A DNA stretch of 60,000 nt from Mobula hypostoma (taxonomy: Eukaryota), in contig NC_086107.1 of NCBI RefSeq assembly GCF_963921235.1, positions 96,536,001 through 96,596,000 on the forward strand. The letters run 5' to 3'. Below, in pieces: positions 891 through 59,520 of this stretch. Both the position numbers and the translations under genes were made by a program. The notes under the pieces are model-generated. The model saw nothing but the letters and a program-made list of their open reading frames with translations, ran no database searches and had not been told where the DNA came from. Position 1 is the stretch's first letter, and each line of letters opens with the position of its first letter.

Positions 891-1025
891 AGTCCTGATG
901 AAGGGTCTCAGCACAAAACATTGACTGTTTATTCCCTTCCATAGATGCTGCCTGATGTGAGGTTTCTCCAGCATTTTGTGTGTACTGTTTGAGATTGCCA
1001 GTATCTGCAGAATCACTTAAGTTTA
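891..1025 (+). mobile_element. Penelope-like pseudo-LTR fragment with a degenerate hammerhead core
   Basis: agtcctgatgaagggtctcagcacaaaacattgactg followed by the shared atagatgctgcctg...ccagcattttgtgtg tail. Confidence 0.75.
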
Positions 1026-7246: not shown

Positions 7247-7345
7247 CAGGCAATCCATGGTCAGCTACATTGGCTGATGGAGGTCCAGGATAAGGAGGTG
7301 GGGGAGGCATGCACATATCCATGGCAGGAGCAGATGGATGGACAC
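7247..7345 (-). CDS. WBP2NL: WBP2NL-like coding exon 6 (GVHPSAPAMDMCMPPPPPYPGPPSANVADHGLP), PPxY motif
   Basis: Acceptor aatttcag, donor G|gtatgt; 99 nt, phase 1-1; PPPPYPGP WW-binding motif. Confidence 0.9.
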
Positions 7346-7479
7346 CTGAAATTACACATTTACACGTGCATTAAAATAAATCTAATTTATTTCTTCTTAC
7401 GGCAGTATAATCCCAGCATTGGCGAAATAATTGTTTTCAACAGACTACGCAGGTATAAATGCAAAACTCATACTGTCAT

Positions 7480-8760
7480 AGAAATGTAGTGCACAGAAAT
7501 ACCCTTTTCAGCCCAACTTGTCCTGCCAATCATGATGCCTATCTGCACTAATTGCATTTGCCCACATTAGGGTGTAGCCCTCTACAGTTCCCATCTAAGA
7601 TTCTATTTGCAGATACCACTAAATGCATTACAAGGGTATGGATCTTAATCAGCCGAATAAGTGGGCCAAGGAATGGCAAATGGGAGTTTCATGTGGATAA
7701 GGGCAAGATGTGACATTTTGAAAAGTCAAATACAGTTATAACTTTCACAATGAATGGCAGGGCCCTGGATTCCTAGAAATCATTGTAGAACAGAGGGACT
7801 TTGGATCTCTGCACTTCTTGTTGCTTTGGTAAATCAGCCAGCATAATCAAAGGCCCCACCTAACCCAGACATTCTCTCTTCACCCATCTTCCACTGGGCA
7901 AAAGAAGTGCAGTTAGAAATTGGCAGTATGACACTGTGGGCATTGCTGAGTATAAAGAAGATCACAGCTGGGAGCCAAACATACAAACATACACATTGTA
8001 TGAAAAGGACAGGCAGGGAGACAGCGAGCATGTTGTGGCTTTTTTGGTAAAAAAAATGAAATCAAATCCTTAGGAAGAGGTGACACAGGACCAGAAGATG
8101 CAAAATCCTTCTGGGTAGAGTTGAGAAACTGCAAGGGTAAGAAGACCCCAATAGGCCTCTCTTAATATCAGCCAAGATATGGGCTACAAATTACAATAGG
8201 AGATAGAAAAGCATGTAAAATAGGCAATGTTACAATGATCATGGGGGATGTCAATATGGAAGTAGATTGGTGCTGGATTTCAAAAGCAAGAATTTGTGGA
8301 ATGCTATGAGATGGCTTTTTAGAATACTTGTGGTTGAGCCGATTAGGGAAAGGCAATTCTGGATTGGGTGTTGTGTGATGAATCAGATTTAATTAGGAAG
8401 CTTAACATATAGGAACCCTTAAGAAGCAGTGATCATAACATCATAGAATTCATCCTGTAGTTTGAGAGGGAGAAGCTAAAATCGAATGTATTAGTAGCAT
8501 AATAAAGTAAAGAAAACTACAGAGGCAGGAGAGAGAAGTTGGCCAAAGATGATTGGAAGGGGACACGAGCAGGGATAACAGTAGAACAGCAATGGCTGAA
8601 ATTTCTGGAAGTAATCTGAAAGTCCCAGGATCATTCTAAAGCAAGGCAACCGTGAATATCAAGAGAAGTCAAAGACAGCATAAAAGCAAAATAGGGGGCA
8701 TACAATATAGCAAAAATTTGTGGGAAGTTAGAGGGTTGGAAATTTAAAAAACCAACAGCC
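7480..8760. mobile_element. Degenerate CR1 LINE fragments, mixed orientation
   Basis: CR1 3' tail on - (~7480-7600), RT fragment on + (~7620-7800), endonuclease/linker fragment on + (~7980-8760) homologous to 25200-26460. Confidence 0.7.
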
Positions 8761-10277
8761 ATTTCCCTTTATGACAGGGATGAGTTCTTAGAAAGTATTT
8801 TGTTTGCTAAATTTCATAATTTCTTAAGACTGCATTATGGACATTTTAGTCAAGTTTATTCCCGTGTGTGGCAAGTGCTGTGCTATTTACTATAATGAAT
8901 AAATCAAAAGCCATACACTAAAGGGTGAACGCTCTTAAGCAGGAATGTGGGAGTGTAACAGATTTACTCAGGGAAATGCACAAAAGGAAATATGGAGCTT
9001 GTTTTGGGGGCACCTGCTTGGGGCTCTGGATAGGTTTGATCACTGAGGCAGGAAAAGGATGGTAGGGTGAAGAGTCAATGGCCTTTTTGCAGAAGTTGAT
9101 AAACTTGCCTCTCTATTAACAACATAAAATGCTGTAAAGTGTTAAGAAGAAAACAAAAAACCGAGAGCAACTCACAAGGAATATTAAAATAGGTGACAAA
9201 GTTTGGCGAGGAGATTAAAGACCCTTATAGAGGAGAAGATGGATTTATGGATGAAGTCCCACAATTTTGTGTGTGGGCTGAGAAAGACACAGTCTGCAAG
9301 GATGAAATGGTGAAAAACAGAGTACCAGACACTGACATTACAGGAGTATAAAGGTCTTGGAAGGTTCTGGAGCTACAGCAGAGTACAATAATAGTCTGCG
9401 AGGTGACAGGAGGGCTCTGATATGAAAAGTATGCTAATTTTAAAATAAGAGCAATTAGATGTTCTATGCATTTTCTGAGATCAGTTACACAGCAGCCTTG
9501 CACGTTTAAAGCAATTGTTCAACCAGTTCTTTTAACTAACATGCATCTTATGAAACAAGGGTAAAAAAATAAGTGACACGTTTCAGTGGAGAAAGCCAAA
9601 AACTTATAGAAGCTGTATTTAACCCTTAAATACAAAACTGATATTTGAAGACATTGCAGAAAGACTTTCAAACACTCCCCATCAACAGGGAAGGTTGGTG
9701 GATAAGTTGACTCTAACCTCTATGAACACAGCTATTTAATCACAGCAGATTAGCAGGCATCAGGTTATCCCCAGATTACACCAAGGAACTCCTTTCCTCA
9801 GACTGTACTCATCATTTGAAATTAACCCAGAGTGCAGTAACCAGGCAACCAAGACAACCATGACATTTCAGTTTTTAAGCCTGATTTCCAAAGTAATATT
9901 CTGGATAGAATTTGGGAGCAACTTGAGATATGTGGAGAGTGGAACATTGTTGGGATGGTCAGGTGACTTTGAACCTACAGTTCCAAAACTCTCCAACAAT
10001 ATTAGCTTCTCTCAGCTCACTTCTGGTCTCTTCAAATTCAAGAGACTTTTCATATTTAGCCAGTTACACCCTTATTGTTGTATTACATAACTATTAGAGT
10101 TGTAGATGGCAAATCAGATGCACCTTCATCTTTTATCTTCTAGCAATTCTTATACTTCTTTAGCTTTTATTAAGAGGAAAGAACACGTTCATTAATACTT
10201 CTGCTACTACTACTGCAGAATCAGCTGACTGGCCTTTAGCACTGCCATTGTCTTATCAGTAAGCTTTTTATCTTTAC

Positions 10278-10529
10278 CTGACTGTGGTGCAGGCATTCCA
10301 TAAAGATATCCCATTGATGTTGGTGGTGGTCCATAACCTCCATTCAAAGGAGGAGGCTGATATGGATATGGACCGTTCCCTGCATATGGTCCATTTGCTG
10401 CATAGGGTCCATTCGCTGCGTACGGTCCATTTGCTGCGTACGGTCCATTTGCTGGCACAAATCCAAAATTCATAACCCCCATTGGTTCATATCCAAAAGC
10501 ATTGTTCTGTGCAGGAGTACCCCTAGAAG
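10278..10529 (-). CDS. WBP2NL: WBP2NL-like coding exon 5 (ASRGTPAQNNAFGY...(ANGPYA)n...PYQPPP...MPAPQS)
   Basis: Acceptor ttgttctgttag, donor G|gtaaag; 252 nt, phase 1-1; ASRG junction motif; Pro/Gly/Tyr-rich. Confidence 0.9.
10363..10452 (-). repeat. Coding 18-bp tandem repeat x5, encoding (A/G)NGPY(A/P)
   Basis: Units at 10363, 10381, 10399, 10417 and 10435; the last two are identical (tgcgtacggtccatttgc). Confidence 0.95.
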
Positions 10530-14090: not shown

Positions 14091-15744
14091 CTTGTCAAAT
14101 CTTAATTACTTATCTTATAATGACCACTCCCACTGTGACTATACCAAAACTCTAATAAGCTACTATCTACCCTTCTGGAAATACGGTGATGTTTGCAATT
14201 TCCATTCACTGGGAGTTCTGTACTAAAGACTCACCTGGTTCTGCTGGCAATGCTCCCTAAATATTTACCAGGCTGAGTGAAATGTTAATGTGCAATATCT
14301 TAAAAAAAAGGTGAATTATATGTACAAGGTTTAATAAAATAACACCCATCCAGAAAATCTGAACAACTGGCACCACCAAAGTTCCTAGAATGCTGGATTA
14401 ATGGAGTCTTACTGTACTGTTTTCTACCAGTGCACAGCAGGATCAGAATTATGGTTATATTTAACTGCTGGACATCTCAGAGTTGAAATGAGTGCCACAT
14501 GAAAATGCTGTACTTTCAGTTACACCGTACTGAACGACGGTTGATGATGATACTGGAGTTTCAATTTCAAGATGACCTAAAATCCTTTCTATTAGCAATG
14601 TCTATACATGCTGAAAAACAAATGTACTTTATTTATGGACTTTTTTCTCAGGTTCCATTCAAATCATTTAAAACCCACAGGACACATCATTTTGAAATGT
14701 GGAGGGTGCCAGTTCACAGACTTATGTTCATCCTTGGCTGGATGGAACAATGAAGTCCTGAGATACTTTAGCTCAGCAGGAAGTAAAAACTGTGTATTTT
14801 TAAATCTGTTGAAGCCCCATCAACTATCTATTAATAACAGGGGCTAAGGCTTTCATAGAAAACAAAACAGGTAACAAAACCTAAGCAGTAGAGCTTAAGT
14901 CACATACCTTGAGTTAGACAGGATACTGCAACCTCCAATTCTCTAGAAGTGTATTACAGCTATGAGTAAGAATCATAAGTATCTACCAGTGGTTAACAGT
15001 TTTTGCATTTATGTTTGTACCCTTTTTGACATCAAAGTGAAAAACTGCAATGCTTCAAGTTTTGTGGTTTATGTTGCTGTGCCAACAAAAAATTTAATGA
15101 ACCATCTGTAATAAATCTGCATCAATCTCGTGTATAAATTTTAAATGCTGTAATCATGAGCAACCTCCTGTGTGGATCATACTGAAAGCCTTTTGAAAAT
15201 CCAAATGCACCACGTCCTCAAAAAACTCCAGCAAACTCAAACACAATGTTGCTGTCATAATTCATACTAACTCTGTTTCAGCTATTTACTCTTTTCAAGT
15301 TCTTCTGTCACTATACCCTTTGTAATAAATTTCAGTAGTTTTCTATGTTCTTTCACATTCCGTTCTTGAACAAACTTAATGTCATGTGCGTCAGTGCCAA
15401 TAAATCTGATTCTAAGTTGTTTGATTACATTGCTGTCCTCCAGTCCACAGGTACAATTTAAGAACCTATATAGACGTTTGGAAAATGAATTACAGAATAT
15501 CCACCATCTCTTTCAAAACTCAAGACTTAATGGATGAGACAAATGATGTAGAAAGCTGAATACTACAAACACCTTCTGCTATTTATATGCGCACCTACCC
15601 GCCTGCACTAATGCAGAAAAAATACCTCTTCCTATTTTTCCATGCTTGCTATCTGGTCTCCCTATCCCAGTAAATCAATCTAATAAATCTTCCGTATATT
15701 AATCTAAAGCCAAATATTTCTCTTTACAGCTAAGGCAATTAGGA

Positions 15745-16482
15745 CAACACACATCAAAGTTGCTGGTGAACTCAGCAGGCCAGGCAGCATCTCTAGGAAG
15801 AGGTACAGTTGACGTTTCGGGCCGAGACCCTTCGTCAGGACTGTAGGACCATTACAGACAGTAAAGAAAGTGTCCCGAAGGTGTGGAAGGGTCTGGGATA
15901 GGGACACCAAATACCTCTTCATGGCGGAGAAGGTCGCCTTCAGAGCTTGACGGGAGAAGCGACGAGAGGCAGAGTCAATAAAATGTGAGTACCTGGGATC
16001 CTCAGAAGGTCCAAATTGAGAGGCGAAAACAAATCCTAAAGCCAACTGGAGTAAGTTGGCGGCGGAGACACGTTCCAAGAAAGGATATATGGCTGTGATA
16101 GCGAGTCTGAGTCAAAATGTGGTCAAAAAGTTGAAGGGCCAAAAAAACTACAGATGGGGAGCAGTGAGAGATGGTTTCACTGAGCTCCCATCGAAGAGAA
16201 GATTTAAACTTCTTCAGTGTAGGCATCACTGGAACAGGCTTCGCAGTAGTGAATTTAAAAACGCAAACACGAGGAATTCTGCAGATGCTGGAAATTCAAG
16301 CAACACACAAGTTGCTGGTGAACGCAGCAGGCCAGGCAGCATCTCCAGGAAGAGGTACAGTTGACGTCTCGGCCTGAAACATTGACTGTACCTCTTCCTA
16401 GAGATGCTGCCTGGCCTGCTGTGTTCACCAGCAACTTTGATGTGTGTTGTTTGAATTTCCAGCATCTGCAGAATTCCTTGTG
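15745..16482 (-). mobile_element. Rearranged Penelope-like element: inverted pLTR + pLTR + ORF N-terminus + pLTR
   Basis: 14-bp TSD taaggcaattagga (15731-15744 / 16483-16496); N-terminal ORF MPTLKK...HISFLGTCLRRQLTPVGF; three pLTR copies. Confidence 0.85.
15806..15843 (-). ncRNA. Minimal type I hammerhead ribozyme motif (PLE pLTR)
   Basis: CAGUC-CUGACGA-A-GGGUCUCGGCCC-GAAA-CG-UC^AACUG: intact core boxes, stem II and palindromic ACGU stem III. Confidence 0.7.
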
Positions 16483-16735
16483 TAAGGCAATTAGGAGGCT
16501 ACATTTAAAGAAAGCATAAAACAACCACACAAAAATTCTAAATATCAAAACTTATTACCAGAATAAATAAATATTACTTTCTCACAATGCCTATTCTCAT
16601 CAGAACAGGTGAAACAATTGCTCCTTAAAAAGATGCATCTTTAAAAAAATATCATTAAGTAGAATTCCAGTTAATTGGGACACATTAGGAATAGTACATT
16701 TTGGCCCAATTAATCGGCTGCCCCAATTTGCTGAA

Positions 16736-17018
16736 TGTGGCATGTGGCCAAGTGGTTAGGGCTTTGGACTAGCGACCTGAAGGTCGTGGGTTCGAGCCTC
16801 GGCCGTAGCAGCGTGTGAGTGTCCTTGAGCAGGGCACTTAACCACACAATGCTCCAGTCTACCCAGCTGAGAATGGGTACCGGCAAAAATGCTGGGGGTT
16901 GACGTCGCGATAGACTGGTGTCCTATCGGGGCAGGGGGAGTCTTGTACTCTCAGTCACTTCATGCCATGGAAACTGGCATAAGCACCAGCCACAAGGCTC
17001 ATGACAGACTTTAATCCG
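16736..17018 (+). mobile_element. tRNA-derived SINE
   Basis: A box tggccaagtgg, B box ggttcgagcc, core gtgtccttgagcagggcacttaacc; 10-bp TSD atttgctgaa (16726-16735 / 17019-17028). Confidence 0.85.
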
Positions 17019-17560
17019 ATTTGCTGAAGTTTCATGGAAATAGTTAAAAAGACAATATGACAAACTGCTGTTTAACTGAGTAACAAATTATGAACTTAAA
17101 TGAAATACAGAACAAATTGGAACACTACAAATACTACTACAGTACTATAAAACTGTGTATTTGCTCCTTAATTTTTATTGAAGGATATAGTTTACGCTGC
17201 CATTTTAATTTGATTGATTGTAAATGAACAAAATCAGCGCAGCCCTGGTGCAGATAATGGAATGCCTGCATGCAATTTTTACTGATTGCATCCTTGAAAT
17301 CATCATTTTCATTGTAACGTTCAAGATGATTGTCAATACCCTCAAGTTCTTTGTAGTTCCACTTGTTGAATAGTGAACTAGTTTCAATTTCACTCCTGGC
17401 TGTTTCTGGCATCTCCTTGCCTAAATGCTTGAAATCACACTGAGCAAAAGAATTCTGTAATGTCTTACTGCTTATTTCTCGCCAACTATCGGTGACTAAA
17501 ATTCACTGCTTTTTAAACACAATACACAAATCTGATGCTAGTTATAAACTGTGCAGCAAC

Positions 17561-18423
17561 TGTTACATGCCTCAAGGAGATCTATGATTTTTTTTATGAG
17601 AACGATGTTATGATCTTTTGGAGGTCACCTGATGTAATTTTCCAGCCATTGTGAGGTCATGTGGTGACATGTGCACCATGGGTATATAAGGGAAGACCCC
17701 AGATGACGCAGTTAGCTTTTAGTTTTTAGATTTCCAGCTAGAATGTACTGTGTCTCCGTTTCTGTTGCGTATTTGTTTTTATGATGCAGTTTCATATTTA
17801 AAACGGAGTGTTGCGTTCTGTTGCAAGGTACAATATTACTGGACTGGAAATTTTTGCTAGACGTGTTGATGTACCTTATTCCAGTAGTAGAAGGGAGAGT
17901 GAAGACTTTATTGAAGTACAAGACCCGCAGGAGTCGGCATCATTCGGCAGTTTAACAAAGGATCGACCTTATTGAGTCTTCGTTGAAGGAGTAGTGACCT
18001 GCATCGAAAATAACTCTTGCCAAAAGAGCAAGGAGTTCATGCAGGATTTGCTCTCTAGAAGAATTTAAGGTCAGTTGTTTTAAACTGTTTATTTCCGGCA
18101 TCGTGAATCCTGTGGACAGAACCAGGATGAAAGTTGCGTCTATGAAGAAATCCTACTCCAGAGAAGTCTCTCCCAATTGAATGTATAAATCTGTTGGACT
18201 TTCGATTTATCATTTTAAGAACTATATCTGACTTTACCGCTTTAAGAACAGTTTTCGCATTTAACGCTTTCAGAACCAGTGCCGATCTGTTGAATGGCTG
18301 CATAGCGGTTAACTTCCGGTTAAGGTTTTCATTTTTTTAATTGTTTATCTGTGTTTAATAAATGTTTGGTTGTTTTTATATAACCTGTCTTGATTGATAC
18401 TCATTGTTGCTGGTTACGTAACA
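17561..18423 (+). mobile_element. Solo LTR (Gypsy-like)
   Basis: TGTTAC...GTAACA termini, 4-bp TSD caac, TATATAA near 17683, AATAAA near 18357. Confidence 0.85.
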
Positions 18424-18835
18424 CAACAAACTTCTGCCCCAATTAAGCGGCATAGTGTCTAAAATCCCAGATATTTTCTCGAATAGTTTGTGTTCTTTAA
18501 AATAGATGCTGCCCCTATTAACTGATGACCCAATTAACTGGAATCCACTGTAATTATTATTGACACATTGACAAAGACTCTTTACAAATCTACATATATT
18601 TTAAATGATTTAAATGTTCTGTCTGATTTTTCGGCATTACTTTTTTGCCAAGGAGACTGATTTTTAGTTTGAAGAAGTCTTTATACTTGTTCTGCCTGTC
18701 TCCAATATGCAGAACTACTTCAATGGAATTGTTGAAACTGTGTCTAAAAATACCTCTGTTGAAGCTAATAATCTCCCTCAGAATTGCAAAGAGTTGCACA
18801 TGGACAGGATTTGGCGATACAGTTTTGAAGCTTAC

Positions 18836-18928
18836 CTTGTTGCGCCACTTTGAACATCAATTGACCAAAATCAATGGCTCCTCCACTGTTGAAAACCAAT
18901 TTAAATGAAGCCTGACCTTCCCAGCCAC
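18836..18928 (-). CDS. WBP2NL: WBP2NL-like coding exon 4 ([31 protein letters not shown])
   Basis: Acceptor ...ggcag, donor G|gtaagc; 93 nt, phase 1-1; GGWEG and GGAI.FGQ motifs. Confidence 0.93.
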
Positions 18929-20007
18929 CTGCCAGTCAATAGAGTTCAAATTACATATAATACAAACAAAAATTGTTAAAACAATTGATTTATTTTCTAA
19001 GACTTTGGACTTCAGTTCATCTACAAGAACTGCTCAATATATTCTAACCTACAATAAATCTTGTTTATGTATTCTCCCAATGCTTGCTAATTTACATTAA
19101 CTAAAGGTCTAGCAATGGCTTATTTAAAAAATTCTCATCTATTCTCTTATATCCTGTTTATTTTTCACCTAATCTAGGAAGACATTTCATGATAGCCATT
19201 TTCCAAGAATTCTGCTCTTGTGAATCCACAATGTCCTTTGTTGTACCTCGGTTGCCATGGCCCTGGCTACGGAATGCCTCACTGCATCTCAGTATTCTTC
19301 TTATTTTAGAACATATCTTGACCTTACCTAGCATATTAACTCCTTTGACAGTTGGGTAGCAAATTAAGATTTGATAGTTGCTCCAATGAATTGCTTTAGA
19401 ATGTTTAACTATATTAAATATATAAATTAAATATAATAAGCATTGTTTTGTTCATCTTAATTCTACACAATGAATTTACTTACAGAATGACCATTGACAG
19501 TTTCTAATTAGGTGTTTCTGTGTCCAAGGTATACCACTTTCTCCAAAGTCAGAATTCTTTAGCTTTTGGCAACAAACATATCTTTCCAACCACTATCAAC
19601 TGGATCAGACTGCAGGCAACAGGGCATTGCTTGAGTTTTAAATACTACATCCTATTATCGACAGTGCTGTGTTCCACTTCTACAACACTGTCCTCCACAT
19701 GGGGGCTACAGAGATCACACATTTGTTGACATAAAGTGAGTAATATTAACTGACACTCTTCCCTTCTCCCTCTAATGGGAATAATGAATTTTCTTCAACT
19801 CTTTGGATTTGCTAATAACCACAAGTTTACATGCTTCCTTCCCACCCCTCAAAGTTCCTGATAACATATTTATGTTTGAGATTATTTTTCATAATAAGTT
19901 CATTGTCAGTTAATCCAAACCATGACTAAACTACAGTTAAAAATTTTCATATTAAGCATTTTTTTTAAACTTTTGGTCTCATTATCCTCCTTCCTCAGTA
20001 AAATTGT

Positions 20008-22222
20008 AAGACCATAAGATCATAAGATAATGGGAGCAGAAGTAGGCCATTCCGCCCATCAAGACTGCTCCGCCATTCAATCATGGCTGATCCAATTCTT
20101 CCAGTCATCCCCACTCCCCCACCTTCTCCCCATACCCTTTGATGACCTGAACCTATCTATCTCTGCCTTAAATACACCCAATGACTTGGCCTCCACAGCC
20201 ACTCGTGGCAACAAATTCCACAGATTTACCACCCTCTGACTAAAGTAATTTCTCCGCATCTCTGTTCTAAATGGACGTCCTTCAATCCTGAAGTCATGCC
20301 CTCTTGTCTTAGACTCCCCTACCATGGGAAATAACTTTGCCTTATATAATCTGTTCAGGCCTTTTAACATTCGGAATGTTTCTATGAGATCCCCCCCTCA
20401 TACTCCTGAACTCCATGGAATACAGCCCAAGAGCTACCAGACGATCCTCATATGGTAACCCGTGCATTCCTGGAATCATTCTCATGAATCTTCTCTGAAC
20501 CCTCTCCAATGTCAGTACGTCCTTTCTAAAATAAGGAGCCCAGAACTGCACACAATACCCCAAGTGTGGTCTCACGAGTGCCTTATAGGGCGTCAATATC
20601 ACATCCCTGCTCTTATATTCTATACTTCTAGAAATGAATGCCAACATTGCATTCGCCTTCTTCACCACCGACTCAACGTGGAGGTTAACTTTTAGGGTAT
20701 CCTGCACAAGGACTCCCAAGTCCCTTTGCATCCCTGTGTTATGAATTCTCTCTCCATCTAAATAATAGTTTGCCCATTTATTTCTTCCACCAAAATGCAT
20801 GACCATACACTTTCCAACATTGTATTTCATTTGCCACTTCTTTGCCCATTCCCCTAAACCATCTAAGTCTCTCTGCAGGCTCTCTGTTTCCTCAACACTA
20901 CCCGCTCCTCCACCTATCTTTCTATCATTGGCAAATTTAGCCACAAATCCATTAATCCCATAGTCCAAATCGTTGACATACAATGTAAAAAGCAACAGTC
21001 CCAACACCGACCCCCGTGGAGCTCCACTGGTAACCCGCAGCCAGCCAGAATAGGATCCCTTTATTCCCACTCTCTGCTTTCTGCTGATCAACCAATGCTC
21101 CACCCAACTTCCCTGTAATTCCATGGGCTCTTATTTTGCTAAGCAGCTTCATGTGCGGCACCTTGTCAAAGCCGTTCTGAAGATCCAAGTACACCACATC
21201 CACTGAATCTCCTTTGTCTACCCTGCTTGTAATTTCCTCAAAAAATTGCAGTAGGTTAGTCAGGTAGGATTTTCCTTTCAGAAAACCATGCTGACTTTGG
21301 CCTATCTTGTCATGTGTCTCCAGGTACTCCATAATCTCATTCCTAACTATCAATTCCAACAACTTTTCAACCACTGACGTCAGGCTAACAGGTCTATAGT
21401 TTCCTTCCTGCTGCCTCTCACCCTTCTCAAATAGCGGACTAACATTTGCAATTTTTCAGTCCTCTGGTACAATGCCAGAATCTATCGACTCTTGAAGTCC
21501 GCAATCTCGCCAGCTACTTCCTTTAGAACCCAAAGGTGCCTTCCATCAGGTCCAGGAGATTTATCCACCCTCAGACCATTAAGCTTCCTGAATACCCTCT
21601 CAGTCGTAACTTTCACTGCACATACTTCACTTCCCTGACACTCTTGAATGTCCGGTATACTGCAGATGTCTTCCACTGTGAAGACTGATGCAAAATAAGC
21701 ATCCAGTTCCTCTGTCATCTCTGTGTCTCTCATTACAATACCTCCAGCGTCATTTTCTATTGGTCCTATATCTACCCTCAACTCTCTTTTACTTTATATA
21801 CTTAAAAAAGCTTTTAGTATCTTCTTTGATATTAGACGCCAGCTTTCTTTCATAATCCATCTTTTCCTTCCTAATGACCTTAGTTTCCTTTTGCAAGTTT
21901 TTAAAAGCTTCCTAATCCTCTATCTTGCCACTAGCTTTGGCTTCATTGTCTCTTTTGTTTTTACTTTAGCTCTGACTTCATTTGTCAGCCACAGTAGTGT
22001 CCTTCTTCCATTCAAAAACTTCCTCGTTAATTGGAATACATCTATCTTGCACTTCCCTCTTTTTTCGCAGAAACTCCAGCTATTTCTGCTCTGCTGTTCT
22101 TCCTGCTAGTGTCCCTTTCCAGTTAACCTTGGCCAGTTCCCCTCTTACGCCATTGTAATTTCCTTTATTCCACTGAAATACCGACACATTGGAATTTAGT
22201 TTCTCCTTCTCAAATTTCAAAA
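20008..22222 (-). mobile_element. CR1 LINE, 5'-truncated, relatively young
   Basis: ORF2 RT fragments (SQHGFLKGKS.LTNLL, G.P.GSVLG, KFAND.K, LERVQRRF); (cttatggt)n-type tail. Confidence 0.92.
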
Positions 22223-22273
22223 TAGTTGGAAACACAACTTGTTTCAGTTCTGAACTTTGATTATTTTACATAC

Positions 22274-22409
22274 CTCCAGGTTCAGCCCGAATGGTTCCCT
22301 TTATGTAATTAGCCGAGAAGACTGGTTGCTCAATAGAACATCCTTTTACAAGGTAGAAGGGCATCATGAATGACTGCATTGGATCCTTTCCTTTTGATAG
22401 AAAGATCAT
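22274..22409 (-). CDS. WBP2NL: WBP2NL-like coding exon 3 ([45 protein letters not shown])
   Basis: Acceptor ttgttgtttcag, donor G|gtatgt; 136 nt; in frame with exon 2; GRAM domain motif [21 protein letters not shown]. Confidence 0.93.
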
Positions 22410-22519
22410 CTGAAACAACAAGTGAAACTGGCTTGTATAATTACAGATTTGCTTTTAAGCCTTCAATTTTTCCCTCCAGCAAAATAACACAGCTATAGGA
22501 GGCAGCAGTCAAATGGAGA

Positions 22520-23320
22520 CTGGCCCAGTATAGAAACATCAATGCTCTTGAATAGAAAATCCTACGGAAAGTAATGGATACAGGTAAATCCGTCCCCACC
22601 ACTGAGCACATTGACAAGGAGCGCTGTCGCAGGAAACCAGCATCCATCATTAAGGTCCCCCACCAACCAGGCCATGCTCTGTTCTCGCTACTGCCATCAG
22701 GAAGGAGGTACAAGAATCTTAAGTCCTATATCATTAGGGTCAGGAACAGTTATTACCAGGCAGCATCAATAGAAAAGAGTACCAAAGGGTCTCAGCCCGA
22801 AACGCCATAAGAACATAAGAAATAGGAGCAGGAGCAGGCCTTTTGACCTGGCAATGGACTCATCTCCACCTACCTGTGCTTTCCCCATAACCCTTAATCC
22901 CCCTACTATGCAAGAATCTATCCAACCATTTCATAAATATATTTACTGAGGTAGCTTCCACTGTTTCATTGGGCAGAGAATTTCACAGGTTTACCACTCT
23001 CTGGCAAAAACAGTTCCTCCTCATCTCTGTCCTAAATCTACTCTTGAGGCTATGTCCCCTAGTTCTAGTCTCACCTACCAGTGGAAACAACTTTCTTGCC
23101 TCTATCTTATCTATCCCTGACATAATATTATATGTTTCGATAAGATCCCCTCTCATTCTTCTGAATTCCAGCAAGTGCAGTCCCAGGTGACTCAATCTCT
23201 CCTCATAGTCTAACATAGTTGAATGTACTCTTTTCCACAGATGCTGCCTGGCCTGCTGAGTTCCTCCAGCATTTTGTGTGTGCTGTTTGGATTTTCAGGA
23301 TCTGCAGATTTTCTCGTTTG
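22520..23320. mobile_element. Cluster of a Rex/Babar fragment (+), a CR1 3' end (-) and PLE pLTR pieces
   Basis: ASIIKVPHQPGHALFSLLPSGRRY; RRMRGDLIETY on -; pLTR tail at 23215-23320. Confidence 0.75.
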
Positions 23321-24098
23321 TGGGTGAGAATCCTCTCTACAGACCTGCCACACAGGCACAAAAGCCCTGGCAAATTCGTCCCCTTACATCCTGTTGTTTT
23401 TCCGACCACGGCAAAATCCATCCTAGCCACTCGCCAGGCCGACCCCGCAGCCCTGCAGAACCTGACATATTGAGTCCCTGACTCTCCTCTGGCATTCTAA
23501 CCCGTGACAAAGTCCAACCTGGATACCTGCCAGTCCAACCCTGCAGTCCCGCAGAACCCACATTACTCAGATTCATTTTCTTGTAGGCATTCACAGGAAC
23601 AAGGAATCAATAAAGAAGTATACACAAAGACTGACAAACAACCAATGTGTAAAAGAAGACAAACGGCGCAAATAGATGTTAGACAGACAGAGAGCTAGAT
23701 AGATACAACCAGATGGTATGTTGCCTGCAGGTGCCAGGGTCAGGGATGTCTTGGATCGAGTCTATGGCATTCTAAAAGGGGAGGGTCACCAGCCAGAAGC
23801 CTTGGTGCATATTGGCACCAATGACATAGGTGGGAAAGGTCCTGGAGAGAGAATTCAGAGAGCTAGGTATAAAGCTGAAATGCAGGGCCTCCAGGGTAGT
23901 AATCTCTGAATTGCTGCCTGTGCCACGCCCCAGTGAGGGTAAGAATAGGATGAGTTGGCATATGAATGTGTGGCTGAGGAACTGGTGCAGGAGTTCAGAT
24001 TCCTGGATCATTTTGAATTCTCCTGGGGAAGGTATGACTTGTACATAAGGGATGGGTTACGCCTGAGCCCGAGGGGGAACCAATATTCTTGCAGGCAG

Positions 24099-24872
24099 AC
24101 AACAGGAATTCTGCAGATGCTGGAAATTCAAGCAACACACATCAAAGTTGCTGGTGAACGCAGCAGGCCAAGCAGCATCTATAGGAAGAGGCGCAGTCGA
24201 CGTTTCAGGCTGAGACCCTTCGTCAGGACTAACTGAAGGAAGAGTGAGTAAGGGATTTGAAAGCTGGAGGGGGAGGGGGAGATGCAAAATGATAGGAGAA
24301 GACAGGAGGGGGAGGGATAGAGCCGAGAGCTGGACAGGTGATAGGCAAAAGGGGATACGAGAGGATCATGGGACAGGAGGTCCGGGAAGAAAGACGGGGG
24401 GGGGGGTGACCCAGAGGATGGGCAAGAGGTATATTCAGAGGGACAGAGGGAGAAAAAGGAGAGTGAGAGAAAGAATGTGTGCATAAAAATGAGTAACAGA
24501 TGGGGTACGAGGGGGAGGTGGGGCCTAGCGGAAGTTAGAGAAGTCAATGTTCATGCCATCAGGTTGGAGGCTACCCAGACGGAATATAAGGTGTTGTTCC
24601 TCCAACCTGAGTGTGGCTTCATCTTTACAGTAGAGGAGGCCGTGGATAGACATGTCAGAATGGGAATGGGATGTGGAATTAAAATGTGTGGCCACTGGGA
24701 GATCCTGCTTTCTCTGGCGGACAGAGCGTAGATGTTCAGCAAAGCGGTCTCCCAGTCTGCGTCGGGTCTCACCAATATATAAAAGGCCACATCGGGAGCA
24801 CCGGACGTCAACTGCGCCTCTTCCTATAGATGCTGCTTGGCCTGCTGCGTTCACCAGCAACTTTGATGTGTG
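24099..24872 (-). mobile_element. Penelope-like element 3' part (GIY-YIG endonuclease + pLTR) with an inverted 5' pLTR
   Basis: CSRCGLLYIGETRRRLGDRFAEHLRSV...HFNS..H...EEQHLIFRLGSLQPDGMN; perfect 14-bp TSD attcttgcaggcag (24085-24098 / 24873-24886). Confidence 0.92.
24195..24230 (-). ncRNA. Minimal type I hammerhead ribozyme motif (PLE pLTR)
   Basis: AGUC-CUGACGA-A-GGGUCUCAGCCU-GAAA-CG-UC^GACU; stem I AGUC/GACU fully paired. Confidence 0.7.
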
Positions 24873-28882: not shown

Positions 28883-30570
28883 TAATAATAATAAGTACTT
28901 TATTGATCCCAAGTGGCAAATAGTTCCATAACACCAAGAACATTTAAAAATGCACTTAGCAATAATAATATAATATTAATAACATACAGTATAATAATAT
29001 ACACAATAATTCAACAATGTGCAATAATAATGTACAAAATAATATAACAGAAACCATTGTACTATGATGTGTGTTCTCCTGTCGCACAGAGATGAACTGT
29101 TGTATATGCTTATTGCATTCGATAGGAAAGATTTTCTGTAACGATCCTTATGACAGTGGAGCTGAATGAGCCTGTTCGAAAGGGTGCTCCGCTACTTATT
29201 CAGTAGCTCATGGAGAGGATGTGCCAGATTGTCCATAATGGATAACAGTTTGTTTAGTGACCTTCTCTCCACCACTAATTCAAGGACAGATCCCGTCTTT
29301 TTGATGAGTTTATTTAGTCCTTTTGCATCACCAGCACAGATGCTGCTCCCCCAACATAAAGCTGCAAAGAAGACTGCACTCACTACAACAGACTGGTAAA
29401 AGATCTCCAACATCCTGTTGCACATATTGAAGGATCTCAGCTTCCTTAGAAAATAGACTCTACTCATTCCCTTCTTGGGAACAGCCTTGGTGTCAGCTTT
29501 CCAATCAAGCCTGTTGTCGAGGCGAACATAGTATTTGTACTCCTCCAACACTGCAACTTCTTCTCCCAGAATATATACAGGACTCATAATGGACAAAAGA
29601 AAATCTGCAGATGCTGGAAATCCAAGCAACACACACAAAATGCTGGAAGAACTCAGCAGACCAGACACCATCTATGGAAAAGAGTACAGCTGACGTTTCA
29701 GAACGAGATCCTTCAGCAGGATACCTACTGAAACATCAACTGTACTCTTTTCCATAGATGCTGCCTGACCTCCAACTTTTTGTGTCTATTGCTAGGACTC
29801 ATTACAGTCCTCTTCCTCTTAAAATCAATCACCATCTCCCTGGTTTGGCCACATTCAGGAACTGGTGATTCCTCCCGCACCACTCCACAGTCCTCTGTAC
29901 TCCCGACTCTTGCCCATCTCTGATACACCCAACTACCGTAGAGTCATCAGAGAACTTTGCAAGTGACCAGACTCAGATTTGTATTGAAAGTCTGAGGTGT
30001 ACATGTGAACAGAAACAGAGATAGGACAATCCCTAGGGGTGCTCCAGTGCCACTCACCACTATCTCAGACAGAGAACTACCCAGCTGTACAACCTGAGGA
30101 CTGTCTATCACGTAGTCAGTAACCCAGGAGATAGTGGATTTGTCTATGCCCATCCTTTGCAGCTTCTTGCTCAGACGAAGTGGCTGGATTGTATTGAAGT
30201 CACTAGAGTAATCAAAACGTGTGATTCTCACAATGCCACCAGCATCATCCAGGTGGGAGTGAGCTCTCTGCTACAGGTAGATGATGGCATCATCCACTCT
30301 CACATGAGGTTGGTAGGCAAACTGTAGAGGGTCCAATGAAGATCTCACTTGTGGTCCAAGGTAAGCCAAGAACCAGGCTCTTTAGCACTTTCATCACATG
30401 AGATGTGAGGGCAATTGGTCTGTAGTCATTAAGTTCAGATAGAGTCACCTTCTTGGGTACAGAAACCAAGCAGGAAGTCTTCCATAATGCTGGTATCTTT
30501 TCCTGACTTAAGACTCAAGATTATAAAAATACTGCAAAATACCAGACAGTTGGCTCACACAGGCCTTCAG
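28883..30570 (-). mobile_element. Rex1/Babar LINE, 5'-truncated RT region
   Basis: YFLRKLRSFN...FYQSVV.S; FNTIQP; GTGAP.G.VLS; (tta)n tail. Confidence 0.88.
29592..29792. mobile_element. Fold-back PLE pLTR pair nested in Rex
   Basis: Two inverted pLTR arms; flanking aggactcat duplication (29579-29587 / 29794-29802). Confidence 0.75.
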
Positions 30571-35599: not shown

Positions 35600-35800
35600 A
35601 ATCAGGAGGAACTCAGCAGACCAGGCAGCATCTGAGGAAAAGAGTACAGTCAACGTTTCGGGCCAAGACTCTTCAGCAGGACGGACTTGGCCCAATATAT
35701 CAACTGTACTCTTTTCAATAGATACTGCCTGGCCTGCTAAGTTCCTCCAGTATTTTGTGTGTGTTGCTTTGGATTTCCAGCATCTGTGGATTTTCTCTCA
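35600..35800. mobile_element. Fold-back PLE pLTR pair
   Basis: Inverted arms; variant core CUGCUGA...GAAACGUU on -. Confidence 0.7.
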
Positions 35801-36053
35801 TTTATTCCCTCATTCTTATTGGTTAAGGATTGCAAGGCGCAAAACATCCACAGAGGATTTATGTGAATAGCAGGCATTAATACTAATGAAAAACTGTTAA
35901 ATGTGAACTACAAGCAGAAATGAGTATTGAAATTTAAAGAATAGCTGTGTAAATAAACAGTATTGTCTACAGAGCAGTTACCAGCCCACAGCAGAGGGCT
36001 GATGCACAGCAGATGCAGCTTGTGAACTGACATGTTCATGCAATCTTTACCAC

Positions 36054-36910
36054 ATCCCCCACTCTCCGCATTCCGCAGGGATCACTCCCTCAGTGATTCC
36101 CTTGTCCATTCGTCCCTCCCCACTATCTCCCTCCTGGCACATATCCCTGCAAGTGACAGAAATGCTACACCTGCCCATTTATCTCCTCCCTTCCCCCCAT
36201 TCAGGGCCCCAAACAGTCTTACCAGGTGAGGCAACACTTCACCAAATCTGCTGGGGTTGTCTATTGTATCTAGAGTTCCTGATGCATCTTCCTCTACATT
36301 GGTGGGATCCAATGTAGACTGGGGGGGGGGGGGCCGCTTTGTTGAACACCTTCACTCTATCTGCCTAAAGCAGAATTTCTCATTGGCCAATTTCCTATCT
36401 CCATTCCCATTCCGACATATCAATCTATGGCCTGCTCTTCTGCCACAATGTGGTCACTTTCAGGGTGGAAGAGCAACACCTTATGTCTGGGTAGCCTCCA
36501 ACCTGATAGCATGAACATCGATTACTTCTTCAGGGTTTCTTTTTTCCCCTCCCCCTTACCTTCTTCTATTCCCCACTCTGGGCTCTTACCTTTTCTCCTC
36601 ACCTGTCTATCACCTCTCCTCCTTCCCATTCTCCCATGGTCCACTCTCCTGTCCTATCAGTTTCCTTCTTCTCCAGCCCTTTGTCTTTCCCACCCACCAG
36701 TTTTCACATTATCACCTTCTAGCCAGTCCTTCTTCCCCACCCTCATGTTTCTATTGTGACACCTTCCCCTTCCTTTCTAGTTCTGAAGAAGGGTATCGGC
36801 CCGAGAAGTCCCATTTATTAATTTCCACAGATGCTGCCTGACCTACTGACTTTGTCGCCATTTTGTGTGTTGCTCTGGATTTCCGTCATCTGCAAAATCT
36901 TTTGTATTTA
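36054..36910 (+). mobile_element. Degenerate Penelope-like element 3' part (GIY-YIG + pLTR)
   Basis: PPLSAFRRDHSL.DSLVHS; LGSLQPDSMNIDY; pLTR with ctgaagaagggtatcggcccga. Confidence 0.85.
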
Positions 36911-40215: not shown

Positions 40216-40745
40216 TACCTAGTGGCCGCTTTATCAGCTACACTTGCTTGTCAATGCAAACACCTAATCAGCCAATCATGTGGTAGCAACTCAATGCATA
40301 AAAGCATGCAGACATGGACAAGAGGTTCAATTGCTGTTTAGGCCAAACATCAGAATGGGGAAGGTACAGAAAGCCCCACTCAGTAATTCAGGAACAATTT
40401 CCTTCTCTCAGATACCAGATTTCTGAATGGCCTGAAACGTCAACTGTACTCTTTTCCATAGATGTTTCCTAGCCTGCTGAGTTCCTCCAGCATTTCTGAA
40501 TGGCTTGAAAGGTCAACTGTACTCTTTTCCATAGATGCATCTTGGCCTGCTGAGTTCCTTCAGCATTTTGTGTGTGTTGCTTGGATTTCTAGCATCTGCA
40601 GATTTTCTCTTTTTTGTGATTGTCTTACCTGTTTATTCCTTCTGTTTTGGTATTTCATATTTTTGCACTGTACAGCTGCCACATGCAAAGTAACAAATTT
40701 CATGACCTATGAGCCAGTGATGACAAATCAATTTCTGATAACCTT
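40216..40745 (+). mobile_element. Tc1 MITE fragment + Rex 3' end + tandem PLE pLTR pieces
   Basis: Homology to 44840-45357, to the Rex tails and to the pLTR. Confidence 0.65.
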
Positions 40746-43899: not shown

Positions 43900-46360
43900 G
43901 ATAAGGTAAATGAAAAGAAAGCATGAGGCATGTGCAAAGAACAGAAAACAAGGGAAGCCTATGGGATATAGAAAGTGCCGGAGCAACGAAGGAAGTGAAG
44001 TGGAGCATGAAATAGCACTGATAGAGAAGGCTATGGAAAGTCCCAAGATATTTCATGCACCTTCAGACCAAGAAAGTAACCATGGAAAAAGTAGGGCCTA
44101 TTCGGGATCAGAGGGACTACTTGTGCACGGAGCTAGAGGCTGCACACATCGTCTAAGTAGACACTACTCGTCTTTATTCACCGTGAAGGAAAATTTAGAG
44201 GGCCAGAGGTTGAATGGGGATGTTGAAATTCTAGACATGTTATTACTCAGAAGGAGGATGCATTATCTGTCACACCAGGGTTAAAGGGAAATTAATCCTC
44301 AGGTGCTGATGAAATGCGTTGCAGGATGCCATGGGAGGCACAGCTGGAGATTGTTGGGACTCTTGATGAAAATTATCATATCTTCTCTGGCCTCAGAAGA
44401 TGTGTTATATGACTGAAGTACAACTAAACTGTGACTGAATCTTTATTTGAGAAGGAAAACAGGGATGAGCCAGATAATTATAGGTTGAGTGGGGGGAGGG
44501 GGTCATCTAACAACACTGGCAAGTGCATTACTAATCAGGATTAATCTGCATTTGGAAGCAGGGATTAATCAAATAGACAGCTTGGCTTTAGTTGTGGGAG
44601 ATCCTGTCAGACCAAAGTGACTTAATTTTTGAGGAGGTGGCTAAATAAATTGATAATCGCAGTGCAGTTATTGTAGTCCACATAGATTTCAATTTGAAGA
44701 CCTAAGGATACTGGCTTGAATAGCAGGAGCCCAAAGGATCCAGGGTAACAGTGCAAATTGAATCCAAAGTTCACTTGGTGATAAGAAGCAGAGTGTGATG
44801 GTCAAGGGTTATTTTTGTTATGGAAAATAGTTGCTTATACATTCGGTGGTCACTTTATTAGGTACACTGCTACGCCTGCTAGTTAATGCACAAATCTAAT
44901 CAGCAAATCATGCAGAAGCAACTTAATAAATAAAAGTATGCAGACATGGTGAAGAGGTTCAACTGTTGTTCACATTAAACATCAGAATGGGGAAGAAATG
45001 TGACCTCAGTGATTTTGACTGTGGAATGACTGTTGGTGCCAGATGCAGTGGTTTGAGTATCTCAGAAACTACTGACTCCTGGGATTTTCACCACAACAGT
45101 CTCGAGTTTACAGAGAATAATGCAAAAAACAAAAGACAGTGGCAGTCTTGTGGACACAATCACTTTGTTAATGAGAGGTGAGGGGAGAATGGCCAGACTG
45201 GTTCAAGCTAAGAGGAAGATGACAGCAACTCAAATAAAAATGCATTACAACAGTGATGTGCAGATCATCTCTGAATGCACAAAACATTGAACCTTGAAAT
45301 GGATGGGCTACAGCAGCAGAAGACCATACCCAAACCTAATAAAATAGCCACTGAGTGCATAGCTCAATCACCTGATGTGAATATAGGAGGCATGAATAGT
45401 AAACTGGAGACCCAAGAGACTACATATGTGTCTCCAATACAGACCTGCTGGATGAACTCGGGGGTCCAGCACCATCTATGGGAGGGAAGGGACTGTCGAC
45501 ATCAGGTTGATACCTTGCTTCAGGACTCTGATTAGTAACTGTGTAGTAATGGTGAACATAAAAATTGCTGATGTTGATAGTAAAGAGTTTGACTACAAAA
45601 TATTAATGAGCTGGTGAGATGGACAAAGTAATGACAAATAGAATTTAATTCTGACAAAATGAGAGGTGATGTACTTTTAGAGAAGTAATTAGACTAGGAT
45701 ATACACCACAAATGGTAGGATCCAAGAAAGTCTTGACTACCAGAGGCACCTAGTGTACATGCCCAAGGATCCCCAAATGCAACAGCGGTTAAAATAGTTA
45801 AAGATGGCAAACAAGATACAAACTGAGGGACAGAGCACAAGAGAATAAAACATTAAGGAGGCCATGCTGGAGTAATCTGATGGCCACACAATAAAAAGGG
45901 TGCAGATGAGACTCACCAGGATACTGTTTGGAATGGAGTATTTTTGGGCTATGGAGAAAGACTTGATAAACTACATTTGTAGTTTATTCTCTTTGGAACA
46001 GAAAACCTGAGGGGGTGACGTGCTTTAGGCGTACAAAATTACATGGCGTACACAGGGCAGATATTGAGAAATATCTCTTTATGACAGAGGAGTCCTTAGG
46101 TTTCAGGTACAAGGTTAGGAAATTTAGAGAAGGATTGTGCAGAACGATTTTTTTAAACCAAAGAGCAGTTTAAATTTGGAACACAGTATCTGAGAGGATG
46201 GCGAGAGCAGGTAGTCTCACAACATGCAATAAATATTTGTTAAGCATTTGAAATGTCATGGCACAGAAGCTAGGGTCTGAGATCCGGAAATTGGGAATGA
46301 TACAGGTAGGAACTTGATGAACACAGTGGGCTGAAGGGTCTGTTTCTGTACTGTATGCAT
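43900..46360 (+). mobile_element. Old CR1 LINE split by a Tc1 MITE and a pLTR piece
   Basis: Degenerate RT motifs and CR1 tail gggctgaagggtctgtttctgtactgtat. Confidence 0.7.
44840..45357 (+). mobile_element. Non-autonomous Tc1 element
   Basis: TIRs cattcggtggtcactttattagg / cctaataaaatagccactgagtg; MGKKCDLSDFDCGMTVGAR..GLSISET transposase N-terminus. Confidence 0.85.
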
Positions 46361-47043: not shown

Positions 47044-47114
47044 GCCTGCTGCGTTCACCAGCAACTTTGATGTGTGTTGCTTGAATTTCCAGCATCTGCA
47101 GAATTCCTGTTGTT
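47044..47114 (+). mobile_element. Minimal PLE pLTR tail insertion
   Basis: Near-identical to the pLTR at 24101-24170; flanking aactatctg duplication (47035-47043 / 47115-47123). Confidence 0.8.
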
Positions 47115-48755: not shown

Positions 48756-49652
48756 ACAGGCTCACAGTGGACACAATCTCACTGGCTCTCCACTCGGCCT
48801 TACACCAGCTAAACATACATTAGGCTGTTGATTATCCACTGTGGCATTCAACACCATCCTCCCCACAACATTAACCAATAAATATCACAATCTTGGCTTC
48901 TGTACCTCCCCCTGGATTCTTAACTTTCTCATCCAGATACCAGAGTCAGTGTGGATCGGGAATCATATTTACTTACTGACAATCAAGATTATGTGCTAAG
49001 TCCACTGCTCTACTCATGACTGTGGGACTAGGCACAGCTCAAATATCATCTATGAATTTGCTGATGACGCCACTGTTGTTGGCAGGAACTCAGATATCGA
49101 TGAGGTGGTGTACAGGAGTGACATAGATTGGTTGGTTGAGTTGTGTTGCAAGACCAAGGAATTGATTATGGACTTCAGATAGGGGAAGTTGGAAGACACA
49201 TCTCAGTCCACATTGAGGAGTCAGCAGAGGAAATGTGAGTAACTCTAAGTTCCAGCTCATCAACATCTCAGAGGTCTATCCTGGGCCCAAAGTACTGATG
49301 CAATCATGAAAAAGGCATGCCAGTGGCTACACTTCATTATAGAAATTTAAGGAAATGTTGTATATAACCAAAGAGTCAAGCAAATGTCTACGAATGTACC
49401 TTGGAGAGCATTCTGACTGGTTGCATCACTGCCTGGTATGCAGGCTCCGATGCACAAGATCCAAAGGGGCTTTAGAGGATTATACACCCAGCCAGATCCA
49501 TCCTGGGCACAAGCCTCCCTCCTGCCCATCCCTATCAAGGGCATCTTCAAATGGCAGTGTCTCAAGAACGCAATGTCCATCATTAAGAACCCTCACCATC
49601 CGGGACATGGCCTCTTCTTATTACCACCATCAGGGAGGAAGGAGATATAGGA

Positions 49653-49805
49653 ACACTCACAACATGCTGGAGGAACTTAGCAGGTCAGGCAGCATCCGTG
49701 GAAACGTCGATTCATTGTTTCCACAGATGCTGCCTGACCTGCTGAGTTCCTCCAGCGTGTTGTGAGTGTTACTCTGACCCCAGCATCTGCAGAGTATTTT
49801 GTATT
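49653..49805. mobile_element. Fold-back PLE pLTR pair
   Basis: Inverted arms joined at gaaacgtcga; 14-bp TSD aaggag(a/g)tatagga. Confidence 0.78.
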
Positions 49806-54779: not shown

Positions 54780-54960
54780 ACACATACAAAATGAAGGATA
54801 CATATACAAATACAGGATTCCTGAGTCCTGATGAAGGGTCTCAGCCCAAAGCATTGACTGTTTATCCCTCTCCACAGATGTTACCTGACCAGTTAAGTGC
54901 CTCCAGCATTTTGTGTGTGTTGTTCTGGATTTCTAGCATCTGCAGAATTGCTTGTGTTTA
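54780..54960 (+). mobile_element. PLE pLTR fragment
   Basis: agtcctgatgaagggtctcagcccaaagcattgactg plus the shared tail. Confidence 0.72.
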
Positions 54961-58729: not shown

Positions 58730-59520
58730 AAACAGAAAATGTCAGAAAAACTCAGGTGTAGAATAGTAGAAATGTTTCCAGTTCATAAGCCTTCATCAGA
58801 ACCGATACAAGTTTGTCTCTGCAATAGATAAATCCAGAGAGGACTGACGATTAGAACAAATTTTTCTGATCAGATGAAATAACAGGGATAGCTAAGATTA
58901 AGCTCCTTCGCCTGTGAGATGTGTTGCTAAAGTCACCTAGCCTGACTGTACAAAACAAACTGAAAAGGACACAGGCAAAACTACCCATTTCTCATGTAAA
59001 CTGAGAGAGCCAGTTGTCTGAAGTTAAAAAATTTGATAGTAAATCCCTAAGAATGCAATGTGCCTAGAGACACAACAAAATGTTTATTGAGCTTGTGTTG
59101 GTACTTACGGTAATTGTGCAGGAGGCCACAGACAGGAAGGTCAGAGTCAGTGAGATGGGGCAGGCAACGGAAGCTCAGATGGAGCACAGGTTCTCCTCAA
59201 ACAACCCGCTCTGTGTTCAGTTTCTCCAAATTAAAGGAGACCACTTTATGACTCTGCATGTATTAAACTATGCAGGGAGATGTGTAAATGAACCACTGCT
59301 TCACCCGGAGCAGGAGTTCCCAACCTGGGGTTCATGGATCCCTCAATTAACGGTAAAGCTCCATGGTATAAGAAAGGTTGGGAACCTCCAGCCTAGAGGG
59401 ACTATTTAGGTCCTTGGAATGAAGAAAAAACAGGTTTCTGTTGTTACACAGCAAAGTGCCATACAATACACAGTGGAAAGATGAGGATGAAGAGTGGATG
59501 AGGGCACTGTGGAGTAATTA
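58730..59520 (-). mobile_element. Old Penelope-like fragment with a nested hAT MITE (59310-59390)
   Basis: Degenerate pLTR (ctgatgaagg...gaaacatt on -) and GIY-YIG-like remnants; MITE TIRs caggagttcccaacc / ggttgggaacctcc. Confidence 0.55.

Follow-up and report, generated by a model that had tools for sequence, protein, structure and literature searches.

Minimal hammerhead ribozymes (min-HHRs) in the pseudo-LTRs of Penelope-like elements (PLEs) were published in 2014 (Cervera and De la Pena, PMC4209133), and comparable systems have since been described in PAc, a Poseidon element of Anolis (Frangieh et al. 2024, PMC11167929), in the Neptune PLEs (Craig et al. 2021, PMC8557442) and in the non-LTR retrozymes (bioRxiv 10.64898/2026.07.22.740005). 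According to PMC8557442, Neptune and Nematis elements have a CX2-5CxxC linker whereas Penelope and Poseidon elements are without one; the PLEs reported from vertebrates are Neptune and Poseidon (bioRxiv 10.64898/2026.07.22.740005). An optional tail is described for PLEs (PMC3846280), as are two start sites of reverse transcription for PAc (PMC11167929).

Here we analyse a stretch of 60,000 nucleotides from the ray Mobula hypostoma, referred to throughout as the window, and we conclude, with a probability of about 0.88, that the hammerhead motif it contains is the min-HHR of an endonuclease-bearing PLE pseudo-LTR and that its dispersed copies are mostly inert. The original prediction implied novelty, yet in kind the motif is ordinary, its kind having been published in 2014, and the ray family adds a member to the known PLE min-HHRs. 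Like the motifs of PMC4209133, it has a U-rich 5' flank, a CUGANGA box followed by an extra base, a G10.1:C11.1 pair, a GAAA box, a palindromic 15.2/16.2 and a UC cut site, and it lies in the 3' pseudo-LTR of truncated PLEs, as dispersed single copies and as opposite-strand pairs. It agrees with the >80% consensus in supplementary Fig. S3 of that paper in every testable feature, and its CUGACGAA...C G U C layout recurs in the Acropora (Neptune), Nematostella 2 and Ixodes 1 rows; none of the 56 motifs in Fig. S3 is from a cartilaginous fish. Stem II is of 4 bp in the ray motif as opposed to 7-8 bp in Schistosoma, and, provided that the window is representative, two structured motifs in 60 kb suggest a density in the ray well in excess of the 4,000-9,000 per genome given for coelacanth and Xenopus (PMC4209133).

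PAc likewise has a pseudo-LTR hammerhead, two internal starts giving rise to a 30-40-bp tail, extension from both strands and an uncleaved RNA as template (PMC11167929). As described there, however, it belongs to the Penelope/Poseidon clade and is without a linker, whereas the ray element, known from sequence alone, has one; PAc favours targets rich in AT and initiates within an AC-rich loop, whereas the ray ends follow a GU-rich stretch. With the Neptune PLEs of PMC8557442 the ray element shares a C-terminal GIY-YIG endonuclease with CCHH, the CX2-5CxxC linker, 5' truncation, the inverted 5' arm, the tail and a canonical hammerhead, although three ray target duplications give no sign of the bias towards microsatellite targets that has been suggested for Neptune. 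The non-LTR retrozymes also carry type I hammerheads from PLE pseudo-LTRs, and they occur in one chondrichthyan, but they consist of tandem units each with a complete hammerhead (bioRxiv 10.64898/2026.07.22.740005); the window has none of these, its sole tandem (40415-40568) being without a CUGANGA box. No description of this ray family was found in searches of the open literature; Repbase, Dfam, subscription journals and preprint supplements naming chondrichthyan families lie outside these and may hold one.

Hammerhead motifs and their carrier element

A descriptor scan of the window (CUGANGA, spacer, GAAA, NN-U-H) returned four core-box matches, two of which were structured, having a stem II of 4 bp, a palindromic 15.2/16.2 and a stem I of at least 3 of 4 bp. 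These are exactly 15806-15843(-) and 24195-24230(-); the coordinates and strand proposed for them in the original prediction are correct on direct reading, and the GUC triplets end at 15811 and 24199, as it noted. They had been put forward as the best copies, and both do keep all 11 core bases, but neither is perfect, for each has a damaged key pair: an A at 15810 makes the innermost stem I pair 2.1:1.1 a C.A in the 15843 copy, while a U at 24207 makes the conserved G10.1:C11.1 pair a G.U in the 24230 copy (it is G:C in the 15843 copy). Core position A6 of the 24230 copy is 24223, a position that does not figure among the 40 contig variant rows listed out of 298. The boxes in the sense string from which the motif was first read are real, but the string itself is a composite of several copies. 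Between A9 and 10.1 the extra base is A in all eight rows counted; 15.2/16.2 is CG in both best copies and in 7/16 rows, and column 11.1 (C in six rows, T in six, G in one) has the pattern of CpG decay.

It might be supposed that an ordinary repeat has come to resemble a hammerhead by chance. Eight matches to Rfam were obtained at E<=1, all of them weak and none to a hammerhead model, and a stable stem III was not found; this miss is to be expected since the motif is without a real stem III. Among ten decayed rows from the window, which make for a weak test, covariation was also lacking (pair-count score 0.079, equalled by 135/500 shuffles; paired cells 75.4%, equalled by 386/500), nor did RNAalifold recover the hammerhead helices from them. 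On the other hand, 200 dinucleotide shuffles yielded 0.785 core hits and just 0.005 structured hits per window, and the features that formed no part of the descriptor, namely the extra A, G10.1:C11.1, the CG palindrome, the U-rich 5' flank and the position within a PLE, fit the published consensus, so that we regard a chance likeness as improbable to the point of being negligible.

The original prediction, that the motif is a minimal hammerhead of type I and that its carrier is the pseudo-LTR of a PLE family present in very many copies, is borne out, as two copies lie directly behind endonuclease fragments and 95,000-235,000 contig pieces per run match the family. What had been taken for an independent 130-bp repeat is instead the 3' end of PLEs, either truncated on its 5' side or inverted. 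The insertion at 24099-24872 (Table 1) is flanked by a 14-bp target duplication (24085-24098 and 24873-24886, found by script) and combines the hallmarks of EN+ PLEs, a C-terminal GIY-YIG with CCHH, an inverted arm, a tail and a target duplication; its hammerhead is followed by 96 more bases up to the insertion end. Its endonuclease peptide matches Pfam GIY-YIG weakly, the E value of 0.0064 falling short of the curated cut-off. It shares 96% identity with a protein of Mobula hypostoma, 90% with one of Hypanus sabinus and 70% with one of Leucoraja, which suggests a myliobatiform ray as host. The inverted and direct arms are identical at 66/67 bases, and as their sole difference is the cut-site CpG, this points to decay after insertion.

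The same order of parts recurs in the older element at 36047-36910, which has a C-X4-C-xx-C linker from 36136, a motif also matched in 15/31 homologs, and a stop in the spacer. The best relatives are proteins of rays that combine RT-thumb, linker and GIY-YIG; in the ray homologs P0001-P0004 the RT lies upstream of the endonuclease in one ORF, and it is cut off in the hammerhead-bearing copies. Neither a full-length element nor a 5' pseudo-LTR was found within the window, in which a broken relic running from RT thumb to endonuclease occupies 43394-42672(-). The CX4CxxC linker points to Neptune as the most likely clade of the carrier, bearing in mind that Nematis has this linker too; a first reading of the ray element as Poseidon was dropped because of the linker. 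A further broken PLE relic, with a weak match to the RT N-terminus, lies at 55109-55330(-), and no hammerhead was found beside it or beside 42672-43394. Several ray gene models were seen to end in exonised endonuclease pieces.

Table 1. Hammerhead motifs, PLE insertions and their parts in the window, ordered by position.
Feature	Position	Strand	Remarks
Decayed copy	891..1025	+	G12A, broken palindrome
Solo pseudo-LTR insertion	15746..15843	-	Starts at stem I 5' edge; tail absent; WBP2 intron, sense
Minimal type I hammerhead, subfamily A	15806..15843	-	11/11 core bases; pair 2.1:1.1 = C.A; predicted cut 15811/15810
Subfamily-A head-to-head pair	16263..16483	.	Joined inside hammerhead; CUGANGA box in neither arm
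Very short head-to-head pair	22756..22807	.	Plus arm ends at palindrome, beside another repeat
Subfamily-B end, truncated near palindrome	23218..23325	+	Profile hit
Whole 5'-truncated PLE insertion	24099..24872	-	Inverted arm, endonuclease end, UTR, hammerhead, tail
Optional 37-nt tail	24099..24135	-	On direct arm; inverted arm without it
Minimal hammerhead, subfamily A	24195..24230	-	11/11 core bases; stem I intact; pair 10.1:11.1 = G.U; predicted cut 24199/24198
3' UTR, 294 bases	24231..24524	-	80% C+T; subfamily-specific
PLE GIY-YIG endonuclease, C-terminal 93 aa	24525..24806	-	Two Cys precede YIG, two His follow; open to stop
Inverted 5' pseudo-LTR arm	24805..24872	+	Begins at ACGT palindrome
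Subfamily-B head-to-head pair	29600..29790	.	Minus arm (29721 down) covers both boxes, has A6C
Subfamily-B head-to-head pair	35606..35800	.	Minus arm (35682 down) covers both boxes, has A6C
Older 5'-truncated PLE	36047..36910	+	Linker, broken GIY-YIG, 81% pyrimidine UTR, decayed hammerhead 36779-36814, tail
Head-to-tail partial duplication, subfamily-B end	40415..40616	+	Period 73; CUGANGA box missing in both units
Heavily decayed copy	45446..45527	-	Profile hit
Young subfamily-A end without hammerhead	47044..47114	+	9-bp target duplication
Short-arm head-to-head pair	49648..49795	.	Without CUGANGA box
Decayed copy	54824..54960	+	G12A, A15.1G; begins at stem I edge
Weak old relic, both core boxes	58735..58803	-	Missed by profile

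An iterated nhmmer search, with a profile made from the window itself, found 23 hits at E<=0.5, including some that are opposite strands of one palindromic junction; together with two arms found by eye (22785+ and 58803-) they amount to about 16-18 separate insertions, which makes the original count of about 15 copies a fair one. All eight positions then listed as decayed copies are members of the family, the weakest being 58775 (core boxes only, alignment score 19). Nowhere in the window is self-BLAST depth greater than over the family intervals (up to 14, compared with <=4 for other repeats), and the density of the family here is approximately one pseudo-LTR end per 3.5 kb. By pairwise identity there are at least three sequence groups, subfamily A (80-99% internally), subfamily B (74-87%), which is the commonest in the window, and older copies. 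Five of the short insertions are head-to-head pairs (16263, 22756, 29600, 35606 and 49648), the first of which is the source of sub-threshold miRNA-like Rfam hits.

Public contigs from four runs were matched to 23750-24804 at 82% likeness. The three large runs, from three organisms, contained 235,395, 195,225 and 94,975 matching pieces, from which it can be said that the family exists in very many copies in several relatives. In run X1 the summed depth reached 7-11.5 million over 24110-24253 and 15,000-25,000 over 24002-24073, figures which are not copy numbers. A scan of metagenomes for the motif pattern gave 11 loci, in all of which the sequence between the anchors was unrelated; they were treated as chance.

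Insertion ends and a proposed mechanism

When 22 arms were aligned to the 24230 unit, with local-alignment ends uncertain by a few bases, the 3' ends of 11/22 fell at +89 to +101 from the cut and those of 4/22 at +68 to +77, the other seven lying elsewhere. An automatic search for target duplications found convincing words at 2/13 insertions (24098 and 47040), and other words, not being adjacent to both ends, were left unused. The duplications accepted are the 14-bp and 9-bp ones found by script and one of 6 bp found by eye around 15746-15843 (15844-15849 and 15740-15745), and they fix 3' ends at 63, 65 and 100 bases past the cut, a difference of 35-37 bases. These two 3' ends match both the optional PLE tail of PMC3846280 and the start sites of PAc given in PMC11167929.

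The 5' ends bear on the question of whether the hammerhead cut creates the RNA end that is copied, in which case truncations and junctions would mark the cleavage site. Three arms do start 3-5 bases upstream of the cut, and the inverted arms 16367 and 24805, which are independent, begin at the same ACGT, but none of the 22 arms begins at the cut itself. As the three near-cut arms contain bases upstream of the cut, which a cleaved RNA would lack, such an RNA is disfavoured as their template, and microhomology within a self-complementary motif explains both the near-cut starts and the inversion junctions. In PMC11167929, moreover, mutating the PAc ribozyme left insertion in vitro normal, and the cut was not the end point of any read. 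A cut-end template is thus highly unlikely. The two inverted arms that share the ACGT palindrome start were also seen to have 2-3 bases of microhomology to their partners. Fold-back of the cDNA at the motif was considered as a source of the inverted pairs and rejected because the right arms start variably (-22 to -8, or in the endonuclease) and not just after stem I.

A second possibility is that the 130-bp unit is a non-autonomous element in its own right, SINE-like or retrozyme-like, that starts at the hammerhead and is mobilised by the PLE protein. Starts at -31/-32, the 5' edge of stem I, are found in 4/22 arms and, by eye, in a fifth (29721); loose contig ends pile up at 24230, the outer end of stem I (586 in X1, where the consensus is mixed with an agreement of 0.41, and 454 in X5), and retrozymes derived from pseudo-LTRs have been reported, in one chondrichthyan among others (bioRxiv 10.64898/2026.07.22.740005). 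However, the remaining 5' ends are spread widely, between -136 and +29 from the cut, two copies run on into UTR and endonuclease, contigs cover the endonuclease end to a depth comparable in order of magnitude to that over the hammerhead, and there is no tandem array with a hammerhead in every unit, making such an element unlikely. The sequence upstream of 24230 is subfamily-specific. Loose ends also pile up at 24194, the other outer end of stem I (536, 428, 72 and 539); here the sequences differ in length over a short distance and are alike again beyond it, and the 3' flank is therefore conserved too. Apart from these arguments, a cluster of 5' ends 30-32 bases before the cut, at the stem I 5' edge, was noticed in 15843, 29721, 35682, 54824 and 58803.

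We therefore return to the reading of the copies as truncated ends of an endonuclease-bearing PLE. The position of the motif, the order of UTR and endonuclease, the truncation, the inverted arms, the two 3' ends, the duplications, the sequence groups and the CpG-biased decay are direct observations, around which a course of events may be pieced together. By analogy with PAc, the PLE protein would bind the RNA downstream of the motif and nick both target strands, and reverse transcription could then start at either of two internal sites, giving rise to ends with and without a tail and to head-to-head pairs. Copying usually stops early, and hence most copies comprise only the last 70-135 bases. 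The template is likely to be uncleaved RNA because the motif and 100 bases past the cut are copied in one piece. Judging from PMC4209133 and PMC11167929, the motif of a source element probably cuts slowly after GUC and needs help to do so, either from pairing of two ACGU palindromes in a dimer or from the element's protein; slow, assisted cutting is suggested since the motif by itself favours a rod that pairs its core to the GUC strand. After insertion, copies would become methylated and their CpGs at C11.1/G12, 15.2/16.2 and C17/1.1 would decay, leaving the dispersed copies mostly as inert passengers. At approximately one end per 3.5 kb, counting across a ray genome could settle whether 5' ends fall at the cut.

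Decay of the motifs and a possibly crippled core in subfamily B

The original prediction also held that the family scatters a large number of latent ribozymes through the genome, which is an overstatement, for of nine copies spanning both boxes seven have core changes and the two that keep all core bases are those with a damaged key pair. Furthermore, the head-to-head arms place their motifs on opposite strands, and the window has no intact head-to-tail pair, the 40415-40568 duplication being the only one of that arrangement. The key-pair lesions of both core-intact copies are of the CpG type. Across 16/18 aligned rows, the poorly aligned 45527 and 58803 having been dropped, letters at CpG positions were changed in 38/105 cases (36%) compared with 27/268 (10%) elsewhere; for column counts 58803 alone was dropped. 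The cut-site CG is kept in 2/17 rows counted, with CA in seven and TG in five, and CpG observed/expected for the window is 0.27. The three decaying CpGs cover G12/C11.1, the stem III palindrome (15.2/16.2) and C17/1.1. As these CpGs sit on important positions and methylation decay disarms the motif, the copies are unlikely to burden the host.

Cleavage as dimers, which the original prediction took as established, has indeed been reported, but in print it is weaker than that wording suggests: in PMC4209133 a single min-HHR motif did not cleave and dimer activity was low, and one of nine Xenopus dimers cleaved (bioRxiv 10.64898/2026.07.22.740005). The anole motif of PAc cleaved only when protein was added, and its ribozyme mutants still inserted (PMC11167929). 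Folded alone in ViennaRNA, which takes no account of tertiary or protein effects, both best copies adopt a rod with the core paired to the GUC strand, with -13.2 kcal/mol for the rod and -7.3 for the hammerhead form of the monomer, and -34.7 for the rod and -13.3 for the double hammerhead of the dimer.

It could be argued that the family has the same PLE origin and that many of its dispersed copies are nonetheless ribozymes, active or latent, by which host pre-mRNA is cut, for instance through the best two pairing in cis in the transcript of WBP2. This gene was matched to whale shark WBP2, and seven of its coding exons occupy the minus strand of the window between 32871 and 5880, its first ones not having been located; both best hammerheads are sense and intronic within it, lie 8.4 kb apart and have 11/11 core bases, and a run guessed to be RNA, which may be DNA, contains 11,753 matching pieces. 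Nevertheless, each best copy has its key-pair lesion, folding favours the inactive rod, two exons separate the copies, an intact head-to-tail pair is absent and published activity is low or protein-dependent. We consider working ribozymes very unlikely, and cis pairing in the WBP2 transcript, possible in principle, is without support here.

In subfamily B both copies that cover position 6, 29721(-) and 35682(-), have A6C, and they are separate insertions (n=2, noticed after looking). At the transversion rate of the group, two copies would share some motif transversion by chance in about 2% of cases. Peptide searches with the translated motif returned two proteins, both of subfamily A with A6, and were thus uninformative on subfamily B. 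A6C was not seen among the min-HHR variants consulted in PMC4209133, and a natural A6C hammerhead is reported to cleave at <0.1 per minute (PMC3088659). We tentatively raise the possibility, on balance a doubtful one, that subfamily B was amplified from a master whose hammerhead core was already crippled. If so, the shape of the motif was kept despite the crippled core, possibly as a boundary where copying stops. Should A6C prove to be the norm of the subfamily, a crippled-core element has spread widely, which bears on the need for a ribozyme, and if found genome-wide it would amount to genetic evidence, obtained in vivo, that PLEs can retrotranspose without cleavage or have it supplied in trans. 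The genome-wide counting proposed above for 5' ends could also show whether a damaged-core subfamily spread.

Other features of the window

The predicted proteins P0034 and P0035 hold the motif as an exon beginning just before stem I. A pyrimidine tract and AG upstream of the motif (24231-24260, -) may serve as a splice acceptor, which recalls the intron of D. virilis that ends at helix I (PMC4209133). In WBP2 itself, an 18-bp tandem repeat of 4.9 copies (10366-10454) lies in an exon and adds 24 residues of the ANGPYA type that are absent in whale shark. An AT-rich inverted repeat in a WBP2 intron (7030-7146) gives sub-threshold miRNA-like Rfam hits and is probably a MITE-like hairpin. Decayed LINE-type fragments of RT and AP-endonuclease were found at 20014-21463, 27130-28530 and 52892-53452.
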